Source: an uncultured virus (IMG/VR IMGVR_UViG_3300044715_001089) (taxonomy: Duplodnaviria; Heunggongvirae; Uroviricota; Caudoviricetes). Taken from it: 20,000 nucleotides of DNA. The position numbers were made by a program, and so were the translations under genes. The notes under the pieces are model-generated. The model did no database searches, was not told the DNA's origin, and saw only the letters and a program-made list of their open reading frames with translations. The stretch lies in the IMG/VR virus record IMGVR_UViG_3300044715_001089, one strand, 5' to 3'. Below are positions 3,027 to 18,883 of the stretch, in pieces. Positions within the stretch are counted from its first letter, which is position 1; every line of letters begins with the position of its first letter.

Positions 3027-3086
3027 TGTGTTTACCCTCTAACTTTTGGATTTGTATTGTATATAGTACAGACACATCTTTAATAG

Positions 3087-3159
3087 TGCGCCCTCCGGGG
3101 TTCGAACCCGGGACACATGGATTAAAAGTCCACTGCTCTACCAACTGAGCTAAAGGCGC
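3087..3159 (-). tRNA. tRNA-Lys (TTT)
   Basis: GCGCCTT/AGGGCGC acceptor, GTGGA-CTTTTAA-TCCAT anticodon arm, GGTTCGAACC T-arm; no CCA. Confidence 0.95.
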
Positions 3160-6185: not shown

Positions 6186-6214
6186 TTTTTTCCTTATTAT
6201 AGTGTATTGCATAG

Positions 6215-6298
6215 TACCCGAGACCGGACTTGAACCGGTAAGAGGTTGCCCTCCGGGGGGTTTAAGCCCCCTGCGTCTGCCTATTCCGCCACTCGGGC
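6215..6298 (-). tRNA. tRNA-Leu (TAA)
   Basis: GCCCGAG/CTCGGGT acceptor, GGGGG-CTTAAAC-CCCCC anticodon arm, long variable arm GAGG-GCAA-CCTC, GGTTCAAGTCC T-arm; no CCA. Confidence 0.95.
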
Positions 6299-6720: not shown

Positions 6721-7116
6721 TCATAATACATTAAACCTGTTAATAATTTCATTCATATACAAAGTAGATATGGAATGAAATCTTTCGTTGTCTTGTATTA
6801 AGATAGAGTTGTAACCCAATATTACAGCATTACCATATATAACTTCATTAATATAATAAGTATTAGTGTAGTCTCTATATATAGAAGTTGCTAGGATATT
6901 AGATTCTTTAATTGATCTTTCATGGTCTTCATGAAAGATTAGACAATGGTTATTCTTTAATATTAATAAAGATAAGTTCTCTTCTGATAATCCAGCGTAA
7001 TTAAAAACATCATTCAATGAAGCTTTAATAACTTGTGGATAAGAATCAAAAGGTATTAGAATAGATTGAAAGAAATCATCATCAAAAGATTTATGAACAT
7101 CTTTCAAGGTCTTCAT
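6721..7116 (-). CDS. hypothetical protein, weak DUF3846-like
   Basis: LIFHED......N.LAT.IY........IYGNAVILG resembles a divergent DUF3846 pattern. Confidence 0.5.
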   Translation of the reverse strand: MKTLKDVHKSFDDDFFQSILIPFDSYPQVIKASLNDVFNYAGLSEENLSLLILKNNHCLIFHEDHERSIKESNILATSIYRDYTNTYYINEVIYGNAVILGYNSILIQDNERFHSISTLYMNEIINRFNVL

Positions 7117-8693
7117 CTATTGACGTCTTCCCACCAAGATTTTGGAGCAAGAAAGGATCCTACTGCACCTTGCAGGTAACACCTAATGATACCTGTAGCT
7201 TTAGCGTAGGTTCCATCTGTATTCTTTAATCTATAATAGTTTAAACGGCCAGTATAATCTACTGGAATAGTAAACGTTTGACCACTGTCGCAAGTCAATA
7301 GATAATGAGTTAAAACATCTTTGCCATAATAAACATCAAGATATGTAATCGTGAATACATCATGGAGGTAAGAGTTATAGACAGACGACATAGAGTCTAA
7401 CGAAACAAGCAATGGTTTTCCTACTGCATATCCAGTAACGGGAGGAAGGGTTGTAGTTACTGGGACAGTAGTAGTGGTCACCGGAACAGTAGTAGTAGTT
7501 GTTGTAGTAGGTAACGTTGTAGTTGTTGCATTTGGAATAGTAGTAGTAGTTACTACTGGAGGAACAACCGGTGTAGTAGTGGAATCAATCAAGGACTTCA
7601 TATTAATTCGCTTAGTTATAATTCCAGTGAAATCATCAACAGCAGGCGAAGAAGTAGATTGAAAGTCAGTAATAACTTTATCTACAGATTGGACACCAAA
7701 CTTGGAACGGTACACGGCTAAAGCTCCGGCAACAAATGGAGTTGCCATTGAGGTACCAGAAGCTGAACCATAAGATCCCATCAACTTAGAAGAGTTAATG
7801 GCATAGCCAGGAGCCGACAGTGTAGTAAACTGAGATACGTTAGAAAATGTAGTTACTTTATCTGTAGAAGTATAAGTAGCAGCTACGCTAACGGCGGTAG
7901 AGATACAAGCAGGAGCTGACATACCAGCAGAATAATTGTTTCCAGAAGCAATAACTGTAGCAATATTCTTTGACTTTAAATTGTTAATAGCTTGAGTAAC
8001 ATCAGGAAGATAAGAATCGCAAGTAGATCTAAAAACAGTGTTACCACCAAGTGACATATTAACTGAAGTAATGTTGTAAGTATCAGCTAAAGAGTAGACA
8101 TAGTTTAAAGCTTTAACCATATCATCATCATAGGCTGCACCATATACGTCAAAAATGTTGATAGCTATGATCTTTGCACCTGGGGCAATTCCATGAAACT
8201 GTGAGTTGCTACCAGCAATGATACCAGCAACGTGTGTCCCGTGATAATGCACTGGGACAGCTGCTCCTGGTCCAATCATCTGATTGGTACCATTAGGGCA
8301 ACGAGTAGCAAAGCAGGCTTCTAGAGCTATCTTATCGGCTAAGAAAGGATGTGCTTTTTCTACGCCGGTATCAATGACAACAACGTAAGATCCTTGCCCA
8401 GTATAACCAGAATCATAAGAATAGTCTGCACCTATCTTAGGAATAGCTGTGGACAAAGAAAGTTTAAATTTAACTTTAGAGTTAGCAGTAGCAACTTTAG
8501 ACTTAGTCTTTACAACTTTCTTATAAGAATGAGACTTAACTCTTTTGTTAGTCTTTTTCTTAGGTTTAGAATTGGGTTTAGTTATTTCTGAACCGCCCTT
8601 GTTTTGGGCAGCTTGGGCTGGAATAGCATTAGTAAGTGTAAACGTAGTTAACATAACTAATGCTGTTATGTATTTAGTTAATTTATTGTTCAT
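7113..8693 (-). CDS. secreted S8 (subtilisin-like) serine protease with Thr-rich linker
   Basis: Signal peptide (...AIPAQA), VVVIDTG (Asp), HGTHVAG (His), ASGNN (oxyanion Asn), SGTSMATP (Ser); start taken at ATG 8693. Confidence 0.93.
   Translation of the reverse strand: MNNKLTKYITALVMLTTFTLTNAIPAQAAQNKGGSEITKPNSKPKKKTNKRVKSHSYKKVVKTKSKVATANSKVKFKLSLSTAIPKIGADYSYDSGYTGQGSYVVVIDTGVEKAHPFLADKIALEACFATRCPNGTNQMIGPGAAVPVHYHGTHVAGIIAGSNSQFHGIAPGAKIIAINIFDVYGAAYDDDMVKALNYVYSLADTYNITSVNMSLGGNTVFRSTCDSYLPDVTQAINNLKSKNIATVIASGNNYSAGMSAPACISTAVSVAATYTSTDKVTTFSNVSQFTTLSAPGYAINSSKLMGSYGSASGTSMATPFVAGALAVYRSKFGVQSVDKVITDFQSTSSPAVDDFTGIITKRINMKSLIDSTTTPVVPPVVTTTTIPNATTTTLPTTTTTTTVPVTTTTVPVTTTLPPVTGYAVGKPLLVSLDSMSSVYNSYLHDVFTITYLDVYYGKDVLTHYLLTCDSGQTFTIPVDYTGRLNYYRLKNTDGTYAKATGIIRCYLQGAVGSFLAPKSWWEDVNR
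7451..7580. repeat. (GTA/GTT)n low-complexity tract encoding a Thr/Pro/Val linker
   Basis: Runs of gtagtagtagtt within the protease CDS. Confidence 0.8.
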
Positions 8694-8719
8694 AGAATAG
8701 TTTCCGTAGGTGGTATTGA

Positions 8720-10399
8720 CTACCAACGTTTTTTAGATTCAATCTTATTTTGAAGCCATTTAGGCTTAGGATTGTTTTCGTAATACTTAGATATGATTTG
8801 AGAAGCCATACCTTTAGTCATGTCAGCAGTAAGGGGTATACCTAAACGCTTTAACATTTTCTTTTGAGGATCAGTAGGTCCATCAGTTCTCCATTGAGCA
8901 GAAGAATCGATTAGAACTAAAGATGCTGCACGATTCTCTTGAATCCATTTGTCAGTGCCGGAAAATACTGATCTAAGATTATCAGCTCTACCAATAATCT
9001 TAACTGAAGTTTTATCATTATCTTTATAATGAAGCTCAGTATTCCAACGACCCAAAGCATCTAATGTTATATGCATGGACTCATTATTATTAAGACCTAG
9101 GTGGTAAGAGTTTTCACCGATCTCTGCCCATACATACTTAGAGTATTCTAAGATAGCAGGGTTTGGTGGTGGTGGCATAAACAAGTTAATGCGTTTGTAT
9201 GCACCTTGAATATCATCTGGATTAAGTACACGAATAGCTTCACCAGGACAATAGTCTTCTAGCTCTTCATACTTCTTAGCGACGTCTGTTAGGCTCTGTC
9301 CTTGTAAATCGAACTCTGGTGGCATTCCCAAAAGAGTAGGAAGGCCAATAGGCTTCTTCCCCCTCGTGGTGTCTGCAATATCGATAATCGTACAATGTTC
9401 TTTGCCTTCGAATAGACGGGTACCTCGACCAACAATCTGAGTATACAGAAGTGTTGATCTGGTTGGTTTAGCTAAGATAATTGTTTCCAATGAGGGTTCA
9501 TCAAAACCTTCGGTGAGAACACCTACATTGACAATTACTTTAAGTTTATTCGTAGAAAAATCCTGAAGGATCTTTTGACGTTCTTCGTGAGGAGTTGTCC
9601 CCACGATTACTTCGCATTCTACCGACGCTTGTCGAAAGGATAAGGCCAGGTTTTCGGCGTGTCGAACGCCGGATGCGAATACAATGGCTTTCGTAGCCAT
9701 TGCCAAATTGCGATAGGTAGCGACAACAAAAGCGTTGCGCTCAGGAGTATCCACTTTTTCTTCGAGTTGATCTTGAGCATATTCACCGTTTCTAATTTCG
9801 ACATCTGATATGTCTACATTTGTTTTAACTCTATATCCGATGAGGGGACTAAGCCAGCCATCTTCAATGAGATCTTGTATTGATTTATAGTAAACTATCT
9901 CATCGAAAACATCAATGAGTCTAACCGAATCCGACCTTTGCGGCGTTGCCGTAACTCCCAACAGAAAAGGAGGATTAAAGTAATCAACAATTCTTCTGTA
10001 AGAAGGAGCAGCAGCATGGTGGGCTTCGTCAATAACGATAGACTTAAAATAGTCATTAGGATATCCTTCAATACGGGGTGTGCCACTACGACCTAAGGTA
10101 GCTACAGAAGCTACCACTACGTCTACATGGCCAGCTTTACGATCAGCTTGCTCTATCTCTACAGTAAGTGTAGGGTTAGATGCCATGATCTTATTGCGGG
10201 CCTGCTCTAATAGCTCTGCACGATGTGCAAGAACGAGCATAGGTAGAGTGTTCTTGCGAATAACTGGTAGATGAGAAAACAAAACTGTTTTACCGGCACC
10301 AGTAGGGAGTACTACAAGTTGTTTACTAATTCCTTTTCCTTCATGGAATAGGATAGCATCAAGAGCTTCTTGCTGGTAGGGTCTAAGGGTAACGGTCAT
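8720..10399 (-). CDS. superfamily 2 DEAH helicase (Irc3/RadD-like)
   Basis: LRPYQ, LPTGAGKT, DEAHH, TAT, LTEGFD and QIVGRGTR motifs; C-terminal AQWR...T..Q segment. Confidence 0.93.
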   Translation of the reverse strand: MTVTLRPYQQEALDAILFHEGKGISKQLVVLPTGAGKTVLFSHLPVIRKNTLPMLVLAHRAELLEQARNKIMASNPTLTVEIEQADRKAGHVDVVVASVATLGRSGTPRIEGYPNDYFKSIVIDEAHHAAAPSYRRIVDYFNPPFLLGVTATPQRSDSVRLIDVFDEIVYYKSIQDLIEDGWLSPLIGYRVKTNVDISDVEIRNGEYAQDQLEEKVDTPERNAFVVATYRNLAMATKAIVFASGVRHAENLALSFRQASVECEVIVGTTPHEERQKILQDFSTNKLKVIVNVGVLTEGFDEPSLETIILAKPTRSTLLYTQIVGRGTRLFEGKEHCTIIDIADTTRGKKPIGLPTLLGMPPEFDLQGQSLTDVAKKYEELEDYCPGEAIRVLNPDDIQGAYKRINLFMPPPPNPAILEYSKYVWAEIGENSYHLGLNNNESMHITLDALGRWNTELHYKDNDKTSVKIIGRADNLRSVFSGTDKWIQENRAASLVLIDSSAQWRTDGPTDPQKKMLKRLGIPLTADMTKGMASQIISKYYENNPKPKWLQNKIESKKRW

Positions 10400-12721: not shown

Positions 12722-13477
12722 TCAATAAGGATTATTAGGTGGGGCAATGTAACTAGAATTTTTGAATGAAGATGATGGCTCTTGTCCAATAACTTCTATG
12801 TATCGGATCTGATGCCAGTGAGACAAGAAGATCTTAGTTGCATAGCGTCGAGCTTGAGCTTCTAGCCTGGAGTCTTCTGTGTCAGCACCTGAATCATCTC
12901 GTTGTTTGATTCTACGGTCAAGCTCTTTAGTATAGAGTTGACCGTAAAAGGAATCAGGAACAGTAGCAAAAGATTTGCCGATCTTCCAAGTAAGATTCTT
13001 TAAGAATGGGTTCCAAGATCCTGGTTGAGCAGTACTTGGATTAAGACCACAATAGCTCCATAAGTTATTAAAGTTAGGAGCTTTGTGAATATCTATCGTA
13101 GACAACAACGCAGCAGAGGCAGCTTGTCCGATACCAGGCTGTTGTAAAGCCCAGGTACCAGTCACAGTGGAGTGGTTATAGTCACTAAAGATGGGAGTAG
13201 TAGAATTCTCTAATCCTCTTAGATAATGAGAATATGATTTAAAAACAGATGAGTTCTTAGAATCATTGAGATCTAGCAACGAGATCCGTGTGTCTTCTAT
13301 GTCATAATAGAAAGATACAAGGTTTTCCATTTCTGTAGTATCAAAACCACGAGAAATAAAATTAAATTTGCGTGACATTATAGACACAACATCTACGCTC
13401 ATAAGGGTGTCTGATTCAATATCTAATTGGGCTAGATCTTGATTGTGAACATGGTCATAGTTAATTTGATTATTCAT
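12722..13477 (-). CDS. IS110-related Nop-domain protein lacking RuvC (TasA-like)
   Basis: PGIGQAASAALLSTIDI...LWSYCGLNP...WNPFLK.L.WKIGKSF...YG.LY...ARRYATKIFL matches the Transposase_20/Nop fold; no N-terminal DEDD domain. Confidence 0.7.
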   Translation of the reverse strand: MNNQINYDHVHNQDLAQLDIESDTLMSVDVVSIMSRKFNFISRGFDTTEMENLVSFYYDIEDTRISLLDLNDSKNSSVFKSYSHYLRGLENSTTPIFSDYNHSTVTGTWALQQPGIGQAASAALLSTIDIHKAPNFNNLWSYCGLNPSTAQPGSWNPFLKNLTWKIGKSFATVPDSFYGQLYTKELDRRIKQRDDSGADTEDSRLEAQARRYATKIFLSHWHQIRYIEVIGQEPSSSFKNSSYIAPPNNPY

Positions 13478-13739
13478 TAGGTGTTTCTTGAAGTTTAAAG
13501 TTATTATAGATGAATCTTACTAGTAGGGCAGCAAGATGTTCATCGTAGCCAGGAAAATCAGAATGACATGAGCAGTCGCTGCAGTCAGCATCTTCATACG
13601 AGCAATCGTCACAGCAGTCGCCGTCGTCATCGTCGTATTCATACTCTTCTACATTGGCATCGATAATGTATTGTAGTATGATTTCTTTTATTTTAGACTT
13701 AGAGTCTAGTTCTTCTGGTAGGTAGTTAGTTTTAGGCAT
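13470..13739 (-). CDS. hypothetical protein with Asp/Cys-rich cluster
   Basis: Start moved to ATG 13739 (AAGGA SD); contains DDDDGDCCDDCSYEDADCSDCSCH. Confidence 0.65.
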   Translation of the reverse strand: MPKTNYLPEELDSKSKIKEIILQYIIDANVEEYEYDDDDGDCCDDCSYEDADCSDCSCHSDFPGYDEHLAALLVRFIYNNFKLQETPNE

Positions 13740-13785
13740 AGGGATATCCTTATGATTAAGGGTAATGATTCTTGTGTTTTGCATT

Positions 13786-13817: not shown

Positions 13818-14693
13818 CTAGCGTACAGAAGTAGCTTTAACATTCCAGTTTCTAAGTCTGCCACTAGAGAAGTGGAGAATCCAACTGGCGAATAAAGCAT
13901 TGACTGCTGGTGTCATTAGATCGTCAGGGGCATAACCAAATTGTTCTCTTAATGTTTTAAACCATGAAGAGTTGATTTGGAGCAGACCTGAGTCGTATGA
14001 ACCGTTAGAGTTGAGGGTCCAGACTATATGCCCGTTTTCCCATTTAGCATTGACGGCTCCAGGATTACACCTAGATTCACGCCAAGCGATATAAGAAAAC
14101 ACTTTGTGTGGCAGGGCATACTTCTTAAAAGTATCTTCAAACTGTGGACAGTAAAATTCTTTACCTACAGGAAGTTTAACTTTAAGAACTGTGTCTTTTT
14201 TAGGTTTGAGGTAAGTATTATTTTTAATACAGCCCCAACCATTAAAGCCAACAGCTGGTCTAAAGAATGGTGTGTTATTAGTTCTGTCTTCGACAGTCAT
14301 AAACTCATTCTTTGTTTGGTAGCCAAACACTGCAATTCTGTTAGCCACTACGATCTGTTCAAGAACAGTCGCTTTGGAAGGATGAGATGCAAACTCTTTG
14401 CCACCATATCCTTGCCATGTGGATTTAGCTATGCCAAGTCCACCACCCCAGTTGCCACCGTCTTGCCAGTCCTGGCGAGTCTCGCATTGGGCTACTTTAG
14501 TCCAGTACTTAATAGAAGGTCCCATCTTAAATTCGACGGACTTCCACTTAGTAGGAGTACTGAGTAGGGTGGTACTTCGGGGCTCGGAAGAAAGCTCCGA
14601 GACGCCTCCAGTTGCTGCACCAGCAGCAGAGCTAACAACAACAGATGTTACTAGCATTGTTAATATTAATATTATCACTCGTAGTATGCGCAT
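13818..14693 (-). CDS. secreted dual lytic transglycosylase (Rpf-like domain + SLT domain)
   Basis: Signal peptide; WTKVAQCET..W.....GGGL.I..STW..YGG......AT..EQI.VA.RI (Rpf); IAWRESRCNP.AVN...DSGLLQIN..W...L..P..N (SLT); AAGGAG SD. Confidence 0.88.
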   Translation of the reverse strand: MRILRVIILILTMLVTSVVVSSAAGAATGGVSELSSEPRSTTLLSTPTKWKSVEFKMGPSIKYWTKVAQCETRQDWQDGGNWGGGLGIAKSTWQGYGGKEFASHPSKATVLEQIVVANRIAVFGYQTKNEFMTVEDRTNNTPFFRPAVGFNGWGCIKNNTYLKPKKDTVLKVKLPVGKEFYCPQFEDTFKKYALPHKVFSYIAWRESRCNPGAVNAKWENGHIVWTLNSNGSYDSGLLQINSSWFKTLREQFGYAPDDLMTPAVNALFASWILHFSSGRLRNWNVKATSVR

Positions 14694-15498: not shown

Positions 15499-15686
15499 TG
15501 TGGTTTCCTTTCCCGTTAACGGGGATTGTTTATGGATTTTTATTCATATAAAGGTATATAAATAATTGTGTTACATAGGAATAGTTTAGCAAATAAAGTT
15601 GATAAAATCAAGAACATCATTACAAATAATATAATATATATAGTGATGATGTCCTCGAAGGTATATAAAATCAATGGTCTAACAAA

Positions 15687-15971
15687 TTAATCTTGACGTG
15701 GAGCTATCTTAGAGACTTGCATGAGAGCTTGAAAGAAAGTTATGATGGTTTCATGAACTTTGAAGTTAGCGTCCATTAATGAAGAAAGACTAACAACAGT
15801 ATCTTCTGGAAGTGTGTAAAGATCTAATTCAAGAATATAATTTTGGATAGTGCTAACATTTTCAGACAGCACTGACATCATAGACATGAGCTCAGCGTGG
15901 TTAGCCAAGAAGAATTTCTCAATGTCTGCAGGGTCTTGTAAGTTATAACTTGAGATATCAATATCAGCCAT
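15687..15971 (-). CDS. hypothetical acidic helical protein
   Basis: Start moved to ATG 15971 (GAGG SD); the ORF-track start lies inside the RNA stem. Confidence 0.65.
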   Translation of the reverse strand: MADIDISSYNLQDPADIEKFFLANHAELMSMMSVLSENVSTIQNYILELDLYTLPEDTVVSLSSLMDANFKVHETIITFFQALMQVSKIAPRQD

Positions 15972-15992
15972 ATTAGTTGGTGCCTCTCGTTT

Positions 15993-16121
15993 AAAAAAAA
16001 CCATAGTCAACTCTGCCATCTCTAGGACAGTGGTGATGGGGCACTGGGAGATTTTAATCTGAGCTAAGGAGGGTAAGTGCTCAAAGATTATTTCCTAGAG
16101 ACAGCAGAGCTGACTACAGTT
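15993..16121 (-). ncRNA. candidate sRNA with 28-bp closing stem, two C-rich loops and U8 tail
   Basis: 16093-16120 pairs with 16000-16027 without interruption, using five G-U pairs that exist only on the minus strand; loops are ACUUACCCUCCUUA and CCCCAUCAC. Confidence 0.7.
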
Positions 16122-16143
16122 CGTTGTTTTTTATGGTAGCGGA

Positions 16144-16159
16144 TGTTTCACGTGGAACA
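16144..16159. promoter_or_regulatory. parS: parS-like palindrome
   Basis: TGTTTCACGTGGAACA, reverse complement TGTTCCACGTGAAACA, fits the chromosomal consensus TGTTNCACGTGAAACA; intergenic. Confidence 0.75.
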
Positions 16160-16202
16160 TTGTAAGTTGGTGTTAACCCTCGTACGCGTTCGCCCGCGTG
16201 AG

Positions 16203-16247
16203 AAAAAAAACCCCCAGAATACTAGCAACGTGCTAATACTCTGGGGG
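16203..16247 (-). terminator. Rho-independent terminator of the polymerase-like gene
   Basis: CCCCCAGAGTATTAGCA-CGT-TGCTAGTATTCTGGGGG followed by T8, about 12 nt after the stop codon. Confidence 0.9.
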
Positions 16248-16258
16248 TTCATAAACTG

Positions 16259-18802
16259 TTAAGCAGTTTTCTTTGCGTTGGTAAACACAATAGGGCTAAT
16301 CTTACCACGGAATCTTTGGTATTCAATGGCTTCATCAAAGGTATGATAACTGCCATCTTCATCGATGCCAATCCATTCAGATGTCTTGCTCTGCATTACT
16401 CGGACTGTGCCATCTTTGTTTCTAATGAAAGAAACTACGTTAGCCAATCCATAATATTGGAGTGCTCGTTCAAGGAACGGAAAGACATGTCGATTGAATA
16501 CGATTTGGTCACTTACTTTACCATTTGAAGTTGGGTGCTTCAAGCTGGCAGAATAGAGACCAAGTACTAGATCGTGTCGATCAGACTCATTGTCATGTAG
16601 TTCAATCTTATCAACGATTGATTGATACAGGAAGTCCCAGCTACTGCTGTCAAGATAACCACTAGATTCATTCATGTCTGATTGATTCAAGTTGTAAATA
16701 TCTTTACGGAATTGTTTTAAGATAGGAATAGCATTGAAGCTCAAGCGATAGCCAATCTTATGAATAACTTCATCAGGTTGACAGTTCTTTTGAGCCCATT
16801 CGGTAATCATCTTTACATACTCACGATATTTAGTTTTCGTGATCATATTAAGCTGAGTGATTTTACCTTCGTGCTTTTCTACAAATTGGCCTGGCTTGAG
16901 ATAGTAGTCAAACTTCTTAGCATCCCATAATGAACGGTCTACTGGAAGTCCAGAACTAATAACTTCATCAACCAATACTTTAGCTTCAAGCTCAATCGCT
17001 TCACGGTCAGCTGGTTCGTTTGTCTGAGTGCAACCGTCGATTGCATCTTCCAAACTACACAGTTGAAGTGGACGATGAGAATGGAACACAGAAGTATGTA
17101 GCATTACAGCATTGACGAAACCGCCAACGCCTCCACCTGTCATACTAGATCGGATATCATTAAAGACATCTTGTCTAGTATAGGTTTCAGTACGTTCAGC
17201 TTTAGGAGCAGTAGAAGAAGGAAGTCCTACATAGCTAACTTTCCCTGCGTGAATGGCGGTAGATAGGCGCATAGGCCAACCACGTCCAGAACACTCAGGA
17301 AACTTAACTTGAGTACCGTCACTGGTCAACCAAGTTGGAGACCATTGTCCTTCTACATATCTAAATACAGAGTACTCACCAAGACCATTTGGAGATCGAC
17401 GTGCAAAGACAACCTTTTCTTTATCATATTGTCCACCAACTGGAGTCCTATAGAATAAACCAAAGAAGTCGTCACCGTCGCAGCCACCATGGCTCTCATA
17501 CATCTCAATCCAATCGAGATCATTAACTACGTGTACACCAAGGTCATTGATGCGTTGAATAGTTCCTTCTTCGACTTCTACATCATAACCAGATAAGCGA
17601 GCCATAGACTCGCTAATAATCTGTTCAGATACAGAACAAGGGATTGGGATACGTTCTTGAAGGGGTTTAGCATGGCTAGTAGCAAGGGTCTGGAATAACC
17701 AAGGGGAATCAGTTACCTTCATCCCCATTGCTTTCCAGCGATAACCTTGATATTGAAACCGTGCATAAGACTCTTCATCTTCAAGGTTAGTATCATCACG
17801 GAAAGAACGTTGGTATACATTCTTCCAGTTCATCAAAAGCTTATTGTTGATGGCATCGTTGAAGAGTTTCTTATATTCCTCGTCTAGCCAATATTCCATA
17901 TCACTCTTGGTAAAGAGTTGTGGCATATTAATAAGAGTTTGATCGTCCGTACGGACTTTGGACTTAGGTCCTTGAGGCTCAGCAATGAGTTGATAGCCTT
18001 CAGAATATGAGATCTCTGTCTTGACATTTCCATGCCAAGTCAATACATCTACACCTTCAGGAAGTTTATCGGTAACAAAGCAGTTGCCTTTAAGCTGACC
18101 CATTGGTCCAGTAAGTCTAATATTAAATACTTTAGCATTATATAGATTACGGATGCAATCCATACGCATAGTAGGATTAAGATAGTACTCACCTGGATCC
18201 TCGTTTTCAGCGGGATCAAAGATAGGTAGGTTATCAATACCTTTATGGATCAATCGTGGATGGATAGCAAAGCCACCGTCTAAGAGTCGATCCCAAACTT
18301 CAGGATTTTGATAAAATTCTTGATAGTCTTCAGCATCTATAAGCCAATAGCCTTCTTCATCGCTATCGAAATAGCGACTAAAGTCGCCGGCTTCACAATA
18401 GCGTATTTTGATTTCATCAAGATCAAAGTGAGCATTGATTAAAGTAGGTCGATGGAGAGTCTTCAACCGCTTAGCAGTCTTGCCTCCACCGTGGACAGTA
18501 TAACCCATATCAGTAAAGATACTAAGCCATTCAGTATTGTTGCCAATTTGACAGATAACAATTTTGTTCTTGTCAACTAGAGCATACTGAATAGAAGGAT
18601 CATTAATGATTTGTTGAATTTGGGTAAATTCATGTTCGTTTTGTGGGATAGGCAAAGAGCCTACCCGATAGAATGATTCGCCAGAATATTGTAATGCCTG
18701 GCGAAGGTGAGATATATCGTAGAAACCTACTTGATATCCACCTGTAGAGCGAATAGGTCCATCAGCATAGCAGATAGTTCTTGTTTTGGGGTTAATGGCC
18801 AA
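16259..18802 (-). CDS. putative single-subunit two-barrel RNA polymerase (YonO/cellular RdRP-like), atypical active site
   Basis: 847 aa; motifs LLDGGFAI, FNIRL...LKG, HGGCDGDDFF, VFARRSPNGLGEY, VGGFVN and EDAIDG; AAGGAGG SD. Confidence 0.6.
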   Translation of the reverse strand: MAINPKTRTICYADGPIRSTGGYQVGFYDISHLRQALQYSGESFYRVGSLPIPQNEHEFTQIQQIINDPSIQYALVDKNKIVICQIGNNTEWLSIFTDMGYTVHGGGKTAKRLKTLHRPTLINAHFDLDEIKIRYCEAGDFSRYFDSDEEGYWLIDAEDYQEFYQNPEVWDRLLDGGFAIHPRLIHKGIDNLPIFDPAENEDPGEYYLNPTMRMDCIRNLYNAKVFNIRLTGPMGQLKGNCFVTDKLPEGVDVLTWHGNVKTEISYSEGYQLIAEPQGPKSKVRTDDQTLINMPQLFTKSDMEYWLDEEYKKLFNDAINNKLLMNWKNVYQRSFRDDTNLEDEESYARFQYQGYRWKAMGMKVTDSPWLFQTLATSHAKPLQERIPIPCSVSEQIISESMARLSGYDVEVEEGTIQRINDLGVHVVNDLDWIEMYESHGGCDGDDFFGLFYRTPVGGQYDKEKVVFARRSPNGLGEYSVFRYVEGQWSPTWLTSDGTQVKFPECSGRGWPMRLSTAIHAGKVSYVGLPSSTAPKAERTETYTRQDVFNDIRSSMTGGGVGGFVNAVMLHTSVFHSHRPLQLCSLEDAIDGCTQTNEPADREAIELEAKVLVDEVISSGLPVDRSLWDAKKFDYYLKPGQFVEKHEGKITQLNMITKTKYREYVKMITEWAQKNCQPDEVIHKIGYRLSFNAIPILKQFRKDIYNLNQSDMNESSGYLDSSSWDFLYQSIVDKIELHDNESDRHDLVLGLYSASLKHPTSNGKVSDQIVFNRHVFPFLERALQYYGLANVVSFIRNKDGTVRVMQSKTSEWIGIDEDGSYHTFDEAIEYQRFRGKISPIVFTNAKKTA

Positions 18803-18883
18803 AATCCCTCCTTAAGAGATTGTGTAATTATAATTATATTTTTGTATGTCTTTGCATAAACATAAAAAAGTATGATGGGGGGT

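Follow-up and report, generated by a model that had tools for sequence, protein, structure and literature searches.

Genomic context of the RNA element

The stretch of DNA analysed here (20,000 nucleotides, referred to as the window) corresponds to bases 34589-54588 of a 104,067-bp record of an uncultured virus (IMG/VR IMGVR_UViG_3300044715_001089), which is estimated to be 49% complete. Nearly all open reading frames (ORFs) of the window lie on the minus strand, and between two of these, one encoding a protein of 847 aa and the other a 94-aa ORF starting with ATG at position 15971, there is a structured RNA element of approximately 130 nt, which probably acts on the Shine-Dalgarno (SD) sequence in the translation-initiation region (TIR) of the 847-aa gene. 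The identical region is present in a 267,766-bp record that is rated 100% complete, and the source virus is therefore a jumbo phage. The DNA sequencing runs that contain the region are derived from lake-water metagenomes. The features of the locus are listed in Table 1.

Table 1. Positions of the RNA element, its parts and the adjoining features in the window
Feature	Position	Strand	Remarks
847-aa gene, proposed target	16259..18802	-	TTG start; large uncultured protein family
TIR of the 847-aa gene	18803..18821	-	Predicted small hairpin AAUCUCUU-AAG-GAGGGAUU containing the target UAAGGAGGG (18814-18806)
Intrinsic terminator of the 847-aa gene	16208..16250	-	Strong; 20-bp stem with 8 G-C pairs, U tract; separates the gene from the RNA
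18-bp near-palindrome ATGTTCCACGTGAAACAT, candidate operator	16143..16160	-	Conserved in the window clade and the 61-62% clades
A-rich single-stranded 5' leader CAUAAAAAACA	16123..16133	-	Alignment rows, by eye
Structured RNA core (closing stem P1, hairpin 1, junction, hairpin 2)	15998..16122	-	RNAfold, covariance model, covariation
Hairpin 1	16055..16090	-	14-nt loop ACUUACCCUCCUUA (16078-16065) containing CCCUCCUUA, the proposed seed against the SD of the 847-aa gene
Hairpin 2	16028..16046	-	Loop CCCCAUCAC (16041-16033), second C-rich loop (RNAfold)
U8 tract after P1	15993..16000	-	Possible weak termination signal; partly inside the stem
94-aa ORF directly downstream of the RNA	15687..15971	-	SD GAGAGG

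Relatives of the locus were collected by searching with the 847-aa protein and subsequently with its alignment, which yielded 51 loci (numbered with the prefix L) from viral and metagenome contigs with 45-100% protein identity; clades are designated below by this identity. A covariance model was made from 17 homologues that had been located by hand, and pair statistics were obtained from 22 distinct sequences aligned to this model. As regards clades of 66-71% identity, a scan of viral contigs with P0002 gave none, while P0007 gave only more distant loci that lack the RNA. A scan of viral contigs for palindromes returned at least 128 stretches and was not used; the listed contigs beyond the known relatives look like chance matches.

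Structure, strand and conservation of the RNA

In the RNAfold prediction, the RNA is closed by a stem of 30 bp (P1; 16122-16093 with 16027-15998). The initial annotation had described, on the minus strand, 28 uninterrupted pairs between ACUGUAGUCAGCUCUGCUGUCUCUAGGA and UCCUAGAGAUGGCAGAGUUGACUAUGGU, five of them G-U, and these are present as quoted when counted by eye, RNAfold lengthening the stem by the remaining pairs. The two inner hairpins that it had reported were likewise recovered, separated by an 8-nt junction, as was the run of eight U residues that follows the stem. The minimum free energy is -59.1 kcal/mol as compared to -27.9 +/- 3.44 in 200 dinucleotide shuffles (z -9.07, with none of the 200 being as good), whereas the plus strand folds less stably (-48.4, z -3.66). 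The RNA is longer in relatives (170-185 nt), and three inner hairpins are found in all other clades as opposed to two in the window clade.

Across the 22 distinct sequences, standard pairs occupy 96.0% of the 848 pair cells, as against 79.1 +/- 0.9% in shuffles and 36-45% where the 3' partners were slid by 1-3 columns. Compensatory changes occur in 30 of the 39 pairs, and none of 500 shuffles reached any of the five measures employed. The alignment was fitted to the model and hence favours the structure; an independent MAFFT alignment agrees, however, with RNAalifold giving 39 predicted pairs, of which 28 show two-sided changes. The paired cells divide into 711 Watson-Crick and 103 G-U, while only 10 cells are A-C (which would be G-U on the opposite strand), showing that the selected molecule is an RNA in the same sense as the genes; the selection at the RNA level on the minus strand that had been proposed in the initial annotation is borne out by the covariation and by this asymmetry. 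Concordantly, the covariance model scores 92.5 bits in the sense orientation of the window as opposed to 37 bits in antisense, and over the matching loci the sense scores range from 69.8 to 149.6 bits, with antisense scores of 25.9-66.9 bits at the same places.

The closest distinct relative of the window phage is L142 (91% protein identity). The 125-nt RNA core is 98.4% identical between the two, with 2 differences, compared to 88.2% for the 847-aa gene, 88.5% for the upstream spacer, 88.9% for the downstream spacer and 85.6% for the next ORF. The RNA structure is under purifying selection on the sense strand, and it is present once per genome in each of the genomes inspected (G000, the window phage's own genome, and G001, G002 and G003).

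The covariance model matched the sense strand of the window and of 27 loci out of the 51. For some loci without a match the contig ends before the downstream region (L135, L146, L153, L154, L156-L158, L170 and L173), while the others belong to clades of 46-49% identity (L137-L140, L172 and L174-L183). The RNA is also absent from a further 49% clade (L190-L192), including a complete genome of 209,701 bp with terminal repeats, in which no match was found anywhere.

Searches of Rfam with cmscan gave tRNAs only when the whole window was examined at gathering thresholds, and no C4, 6C or cuckoo match at E<=10 over positions 15700-16500; the kinship with 6C and cuckoo-type families that the initial annotation had suggested be checked in this way was therefore not found. 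The best Rfam match on the hairpin, mir-4659, is spurious (23.7 bits against a gathering score of 92). At E<=0.1, the corresponding regions of L141, L160 and L164 gave nothing relevant and no 6C match, and a blastn search of GenBank phages with 401 nt of the region gave no match. No jumbo-phage RNA of this type was among the best matches in the open literature, which is not proof of its absence from print. Judged from these comparisons, the element represents a previously undescribed phage RNA family; an antisense RNA that occludes a ribosome-binding site (RBS) would be a regulator of a known kind, with an architecture that is unusual.

Complementarity between the loops and the mRNA of the 847-aa gene

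On the minus strand, TAAGGAGGG occupies positions 18814-18806, 3 nt ahead of the TTG start codon (18802) of the 847-aa ORF, and loop 1 of the RNA (CCCUCCUUA) is the exact complement of this SD (UAAGGAGGG). The resulting Watson-Crick match of 9 nt, which none of 2000 shuffled TIRs reached, confirms the anti-SD loop of the initial annotation and is one nucleotide longer than stated there. This 9-mer occurs five times in the complete 267,766-bp genome: one copy is in the RBS of the 847-aa gene, another is the RNA gene, read on the other strand, and the remaining three lie in a (Y/F)FPP coding repeat on the opposite strand. The SD of the 847-aa gene is consequently the sole sense-strand site outside the coding repeat. 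The 12-nt tandem array holding these three copies was considered as a second target or sponge; it corresponds to the C-terminal (Y/F)FPP x17 of a plus-strand ORF, so that the G-rich reading is antisense to the coding strand, and the idea was dropped. The ORF in question lies outside the window at approximately 96862-97221 (+) of the phage's own genome (G000:C1) and ends in about 17 tandem (Y/F)FPP units. At the DNA level the array is a 12-nt repeat in which the proline codons vary, and the antisense strand gives a succession of SD-like motifs.

The loop 1 sequences of the relatives and the SDs of their 847-aa gene homologues are presented in Table 2.

Table 2. Loop 1 of the RNA and the SD of the 847-aa gene in the window clade and its relatives
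Locus	Loop 1	SD of the 847-aa gene	Pairing
Window clade, L142	CCCUCCUUA	UAAGGAGGG	9 pairs
L136	UACCCUCCA	UGGAGGGUA	9 pairs
L143	GCCCCUCC	GGAGGGGC	8 pairs
L141, L149	GUCCCUCC	GGAGGGGC	8 pairs, one G-U
L148	CCCUCCC	GGGAGGG	7 pairs
L152	CCCUCCA	UGGAGGG	7 pairs
L134	CCCUCC	GGAGGG	6 pairs
L160	CCCCCUUAGG	CUUAAGGGGG	10 pairs, one G-U
L162, L164, L166, L167, L171	CCCCCUU	AAGGGGG	7 pairs
L151	CUUCCU	AGGGGG	6 pairs, two G-U; weak

Loop and SD co-vary at the level of the clade, the combinations being CCCUCC with GGAGGG, CCCUCCC with GGGAGGG, and C6-8(UUA) with (U)AAGGGGG. In clades in which the SD of the 847-aa gene is AAGGGGGU, the other ORFs of the same loci (approximately 7-9 per locus) keep SDs of the AGGAG type, which makes the G-run a private feature of the 847-aa gene that is mirrored by the C-run of the loop. 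The unusual SD and the RNA are moreover absent together, as clades lacking the RNA carry plain SDs such as UGGAGA or AAGGAG in front of this gene. When loops and TIRs were reassigned by permutation, the cognate sum of 93 (against a mean of 74.9) was reached in 4 of 20000 permutations of the 13 distinct pairs and in 178 of 40320 for eight lineage representatives; the permuted sequences are related, so that these figures are descriptive.

A further match involves the third hairpin, which the window clade lacks along with the corresponding target motif. In the clades of about 62% identity, the loop of hairpin 3 (UUUCCGAUU or UUCCGAUU) complements AAUCGGAA(A) exactly. This motif precedes the SD by 6-7 nt and lies within the short spacer that separates the 847-aa gene homologue from the ORF before it; for the 61-62% clades, the site matched by UUUCCGAUU is AAUCGGAAA, in the same 5' untranslated region (UTR) as this SD. 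The match extends over 8-9 nt in seven of the eight loci with hairpin 3, where 1-10 of 2000 shuffles reached it, and over 6 nt in L136, where 52 of 2000 did so. The target 8-mer is otherwise present at chance frequency in these records. Two C-rich loops are found in the window clade, the 62% clades, L136 and L162/L163, and only one in L159/L160 and L164-L171.

The TIR of the 847-aa gene is itself predicted to form a hairpin, spanning 18821-18803 in the window clade and reading UAACCUU-AAG-GGGGUUA in the 53-57% clades, and three of its pairs change on both sides between these two forms (by eye). Loop 1 is complementary to the apical AAG and the SD arm of this hairpin, and not to the anti-SD arm. 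The hairpin is thus predicted to act as a lock in cis on the same SD that is matched by the loop of the RNA.

Transcription context and the downstream gene

Of the 22 distinct relatives, 20 have a homologue of the 94-aa ORF downstream of the RNA, and in L160 and L162 a small Zn-ribbon-like ORF intervenes; the RNA may constitute the 5' leader of the 94-aa ORF or of the next operon. P1 is succeeded by a U tract in three groups, namely the window clade, the L141-type clade and L162/L163. In L159/L160 and L164-L171, where there is no such tract, the SD of the next gene directly adjoins the 3' arm of P1. A terminator scan does not call P1 with the U8 tract; the base of the stem is rich in A/U and G-U pairs. 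P1 has the length of an RNase III substrate (at least about two turns of uninterrupted double-stranded RNA), with 30 bp in the window and 96% pairing across the 22 sequences, the requirement of this enzyme being a perfect stem of 26-32 bp.

Sigma-70-like sites were identified 20-30 nt upstream of the model match in L134 (TTGACA-17-TAAACT), L141 (TTGACT-17-TACAAT) and L162 (TTGACT-17-TAAACT), with 9-10 of 12 positions matching; such sites are no more frequent per region than in shuffled sequences, and what counts is that their position is conserved. Similar hexamers are visible by eye in other clades, and the counterpart of the A-rich leader in relatives (CAUAUAAAACA) lies approximately 7 nt past the -10 hexamer (by eye). 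The motif CATA(C/T)AAAA was considered as a genome-wide phage promoter and dropped in view of its few scattered matches. The 18-bp palindrome (ATGTTCCACGTGGAACAT) has one mismatch in the window and is perfect in the 61-62% clades, where it is located next to the -35 hexamer; in the window clade it lies 20 nt before P1. The exact core of the palindrome is unique in the 267,766-bp genome, and all three near matches examined lie inside coding genes. We take it to be a candidate operator.

One freshwater metatranscriptome contains contigs of a relative that is approximately 89-92% identical. One of these contigs, 540 nt long and approximately 89% identical, covers positions 15658-16192, i.e. the RNA and the next ORF, and ends just past the terminator, which is compatible with a leader transcript; gaps in the metatranscriptome cover (16193-16947 and others) carry no evidential weight.

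A second, highly conserved noncoding element of approximately 170 nt (TTAGGGAYTRAAGCAGAAAA...GAGGAGATWACGAACGAG...CATAGTCTTTG) is located in relatives between the terminator of the 847-aa gene and the promoter of the RNA, for instance at L141:5585-5765, L134:5565-5735, L160:5580-5745 and L164:5618-5785. Outside the window clade it was observed in all RNA-bearing loci inspected for it (L134, L141, L148, L151, L152, L160, L162, L164 and L167), except that none was found in the L136 stretch examined; the window phage's 267,766-bp genome contains no copy. This element has a promoter-like site of its own, shows covariation in 10 of 38 predicted pairs and has no Rfam match, and inspection for complementarity with the RNA described here revealed no co-varying match.

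Proposed mode of action and alternative explanations

We consider it probable that the RNA is a gene-specific antisense repressor of the neighbouring 847-aa gene, a reading that is drawn from comparative sequence analysis. The 30-bp stem formed by the 5' and 3' ends would hold two or three hairpins that present single-stranded loops, of which loop 1 would pair with the SD region at the apical loop and 3' arm of the TIR hairpin and, in the 61-62% clades, loop 3 would pair a few nucleotides upstream on the same mRNA. Such pairing would occlude the RBS and repress translation of the 847-aa gene alone, and the duplex of loop and mRNA may become exposed to RNase III. The RNA would act in trans. It would be made either as a separate molecule, with the U tract of the window clade as its terminus, or as the leader of the next operon, RNase III possibly releasing it by a cut in the 30-bp stem; the 18-bp palindrome may gate its synthesis. 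The geometry of the contact would be that of loop-loop ("kissing") antisense pairing, which would keep the SD occluded, and it is mainly because the loop targets the AAG and the SD arm that repression is favoured over activation.

A number of observations weigh against this proposal. In all clades the RNA adjoins the downstream gene rather than its proposed target, from which insertions separate it by approximately 950 nt in L136, and the region upstream of the RNA revealed no consensus promoter in the window clade. The 540-nt contig is the sole hint of expression and shows neither ends nor strand, with carry-over of DNA being possible. C-rich loops fit any G-rich SD to some degree, and the 6-nt Watson-Crick matches of L134, L141 and L149 were reached by 128-249 of 2000 shuffles (128 for L134 and 209 for L141). 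Some non-cognate pairs score like cognate ones, such as the L148 loop against the L136 TIR (10 nt). When the loops were scanned against loci of approximately 8.5 kb, the TIR of the 847-aa gene was the top site in 6 of 12 and ranked second or third in 4, while it ranked sixth in L134 and fell outside the top six in L151; in the scan of the 104-kb genome it ranked below two copies of a self-paired hairpin and the coding repeat. Furthermore, loop 2 has no complement at gene starts on the sense strand of G000, G001, G002 or G003. Finally, the co-variation comprises roughly four or five independent co-changes of loop and SD in a handful of lineages, so that the permutation values overstate the independence of the pairs.

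The attachment of the RNA to its downstream gene fits a leader role as well as a role in trans. That the RNA serves only in cis, as the 5' leader of the downstream operon, with an incidental fit to the SD of the 847-aa gene, is nevertheless unlikely. The stem would in that case serve as an mRNA stabiliser, a T7-type intergenic RNase III site or a leaky attenuator, with the loops binding something else, and this would agree with the constant location of the RNA just before the homologous small ORF, or before an inserted one, including the case in which the 847-aa gene is distant, with the abutment of P1 on the next SD in the loci lacking a U tract, with the promoter-like sites preceding the RNA in L134, L141 and L162, with the RNA-library contig that spans RNA and ORF, and with the suitability of P1 for RNase III. 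It leaves unexplained, however, why loop 1 tracks the SD of another gene (GGAGGG, GGGAGGG or AAGGGGG, with flanks), why loop 3 matches AAUCGGAAA in the 5' UTR of that gene, and why clades without the RNA have plain SDs. The leader and trans roles are compatible, and a leader role is more a complement to the antisense repressor than an exclusive rival. A combination of the two is conceivable, though we regard it as rather doubtful in its full detail: in this version the RNA would be the excisable leader of the next operon and, once that operon is turned on, possibly by way of the 18-bp palindrome, cleavage of the stem would release a multi-loop antisense RNA that locks the half-closed RBS hairpin of a gene for a possible divergent two-barrel (RdRP/YonO-like) polymerase (RdRP, RNA-dependent RNA polymerase), with the 'private' SD (e.g. 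AAGGGGG) co-evolving with the RNA. If true, uncultured freshwater jumbo phages would hold naturally orthogonal pairs of riboregulators and SDs.

The initial annotation had envisaged either a translational repressor, possibly of the gene that it termed polymerase-like, or a mimic of the 16S 3' end, possibly silencing host mRNAs with strong SDs; the co-variation of loop and SD sustains the former with the 847-aa gene as a specific target, and does not sustain the latter. A general anti-SD decoy, 16S mimic or sponge for a C-rich-RNA-binding protein, which would damp many strong-SD mRNAs, is suggested by the window-clade loop, which contains CCUCCUUA (identical to the usual 16S 3' tail), and by the fact that molecules of the window clade, the 62% clades and L162/L163 carry two C-rich loops each. 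This reading fails because CCUCC is not conserved, being replaced by C6-C8 in L159/L160, L162/L163 and L164-L171 and by CUUCCUUCC in L151; additionally, the other genes of phages with C6-C8 loops, which include the 53-57% clades, still use AGGAG-type SDs that are poor partners for a C-run, and the exact complement of the loop is unique to one gene in the full phage genome. We therefore deem general mimicry, including the silencing of host mRNAs, very unlikely. Equally improbable is that the RNA activates or stabilises the mRNA of the 847-aa gene, for example by remodelling the SD hairpin. The predicted TIR hairpin of the window and 53-57% clades, with its anti-SD arm, apical AAG and SD arm, indicates that translation is probably hairpin-limited and could be tuned either way, but the loop pairs with the SD arm and apical loop, and no conserved segment of the RNA complements the anti-SD arm (alignment rows inspected), whereas the known activators DsrA (of rpoS) and RNAIII (of hla) pair on the anti-SD side. 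There is hardly any likelihood that the element functions as a DNA-level inverted repeat, such as a cruciform, an origin, or a packaging or recombination site, despite its long perfect arms and its inner part CTCTAGAG, which is palindromic and conserved in sequence: the excess of G-U over A-C cells reveals pairing on one strand only, the covariance model scores about two-fold higher in sense than in antisense, the stems of the inner hairpins covary and their loops are conserved, and the element, in the sense orientation, is flanked by a terminator on one side and a gene start on the other.

Comparison with known regulatory RNAs

We know of almost no regulatory RNAs from lytic and jumbo phages, the textbook phage antisense RNAs (c4, sar and OOP) being from temperate enterobacterial phages. 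The c4 RNA precedes its target within a shared operon and is released through RNase P processing, whereas the gene order here is target, terminator and RNA, which places the RNA downstream of its proposed target. The RNA described here also differs from c4 (approximately 77 nt) in its length of 130-185 nt, its 30-bp closing stem and the lack of a match to the Rfam C4 model, and it occurs in lytic-looking jumbo phages with no antirepressor context. In phages P1 and P7, c4 attaches to its target mRNA in the vicinity of the RBS (PMC12197685). The likeness to c4 lies in a phage-encoded structured RNA whose loops match RBS-proximal sites of one phage mRNA, with loop and target co-varying between related phages (PMC12197685), action in trans being putative in the present case.

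The 6C small regulatory RNA (sRNA) of Actinobacteria represses panD by pairing of its C-rich loops with an AGGGGGG RBS (PMC6486639). The resemblance consists of C-run hairpin loops facing a G-rich RBS, with more than one C-rich loop in part of the present clades and with 6C pairing either loop-to-loop or loop-to-unpaired-region (PMC6486639). In contrast to 6C, which is chromosomal and has multiple targets, the RNA here is phage-borne with an apparently single target and a long closing stem, is not matched by the 6C family in cmscan, and has only one C-rich loop in some clades.

In Staphylococcus aureus, RNAIII and related sRNAs bind SDs through UCCC-containing or C-rich apical loops, two of which can contact one mRNA, and the duplexes are substrates of RNase III. 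These RNAs are host-encoded with several targets, unlike the RNA here, and there is no sequence or family relationship. Long intergenic RNase III stems between the end of a gene and the next RBS are known from early transcripts of phage T7 and the leader of lambda N. By analogy, the long double-stranded stem described here lies in front of the RBS of the next gene, and its cleavage would part the upstream and downstream RNAs; the T7 and lambda N sites, however, are without functional loops aimed at another gene. The conserved structure, accessible seed and co-varying target complementarity generally looked for in an sRNA are all present in this element.

Comparative sequence allows the target of the RNA to be read off directly. 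The antisense repressor would mark the 847-aa protein, which is large, highly conserved and entirely without annotation, as something that these phages need to dose or time precisely, and the co-varying pairs (CCCUCC/GGAGGG and C6/GGGGG) would offer a natural test of orthogonal translational control.

The 847-aa protein and other features

The family of the 847-aa protein comprises at least 237 database proteins at E<=0.001, of which the closest 120, those listed, are 49-92% identical, and an HGGxDxDD motif is among its invariant residues. No match to the protein was found in Pfam, PHROGs, PDB (by sequence and profile) or GenBank phages (tblastn). The term polymerase-like used in the initial annotation is thus unsupported by any sequence search, although protein-language-model features place the protein nearest to clusters of PF05183 (RdRP), which account for 26 of the 30 named hits (score 0.91). 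The 165 features shared with these clusters are below the 170 typical of true family members, and a PF05183 search of the phage's own genome gave no match. Two-barrel polymerases of the YonO type are described as the known phage branch of that superfamily (PMC5467207). We treat an RdRP-like or polymerase-like identity of the 847-aa protein as a lead and not as a finding.

Among the other genes of the window, all on the minus strand, 12722-13477 encodes a 251-aa protein with the C-terminal domain of IS110/IS116/IS902 transposases (PF02371 7.2e-06; PHROG transposase 1.5e-15). The 104-aa ORF just upstream of it (13470-13784) has no match and may represent an N-terminal part that was split off or has degenerated. 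The protein encoded at 13818-14693 has two lytic-transglycosylase domains, and further genes specify a DNA helicase at 8720-10399 (phrog_16 at 2e-91) and a protease-like protein at 7113-8726 (phrog_3677). Genes for tRNAs are located at 450-526, 2196-2270, 3086-3159 and 6214-6298; ARAGORN calls Met, Lys and Leu(taa) tRNAs, while Rfam adds the weak tRNA at 450-526 (35.2 bits) and omits Leu.

Beyond the window, the self-paired hairpin encountered in the loop scan is an identical G/C-rich sequence (CCCTCACTTCCCCGTAAGGGGGGTGAGGG) that occurs twice on the minus strand of the phage's own genome (G000:C1 63996 and 64632), approximately 640 nt apart, and is followed by an SD-like AAAGGAG. In G001 (C1, ~226212-226410; L195), a CspA-like cold-shock protein, read from the translation, is a possible RNA chaperone.

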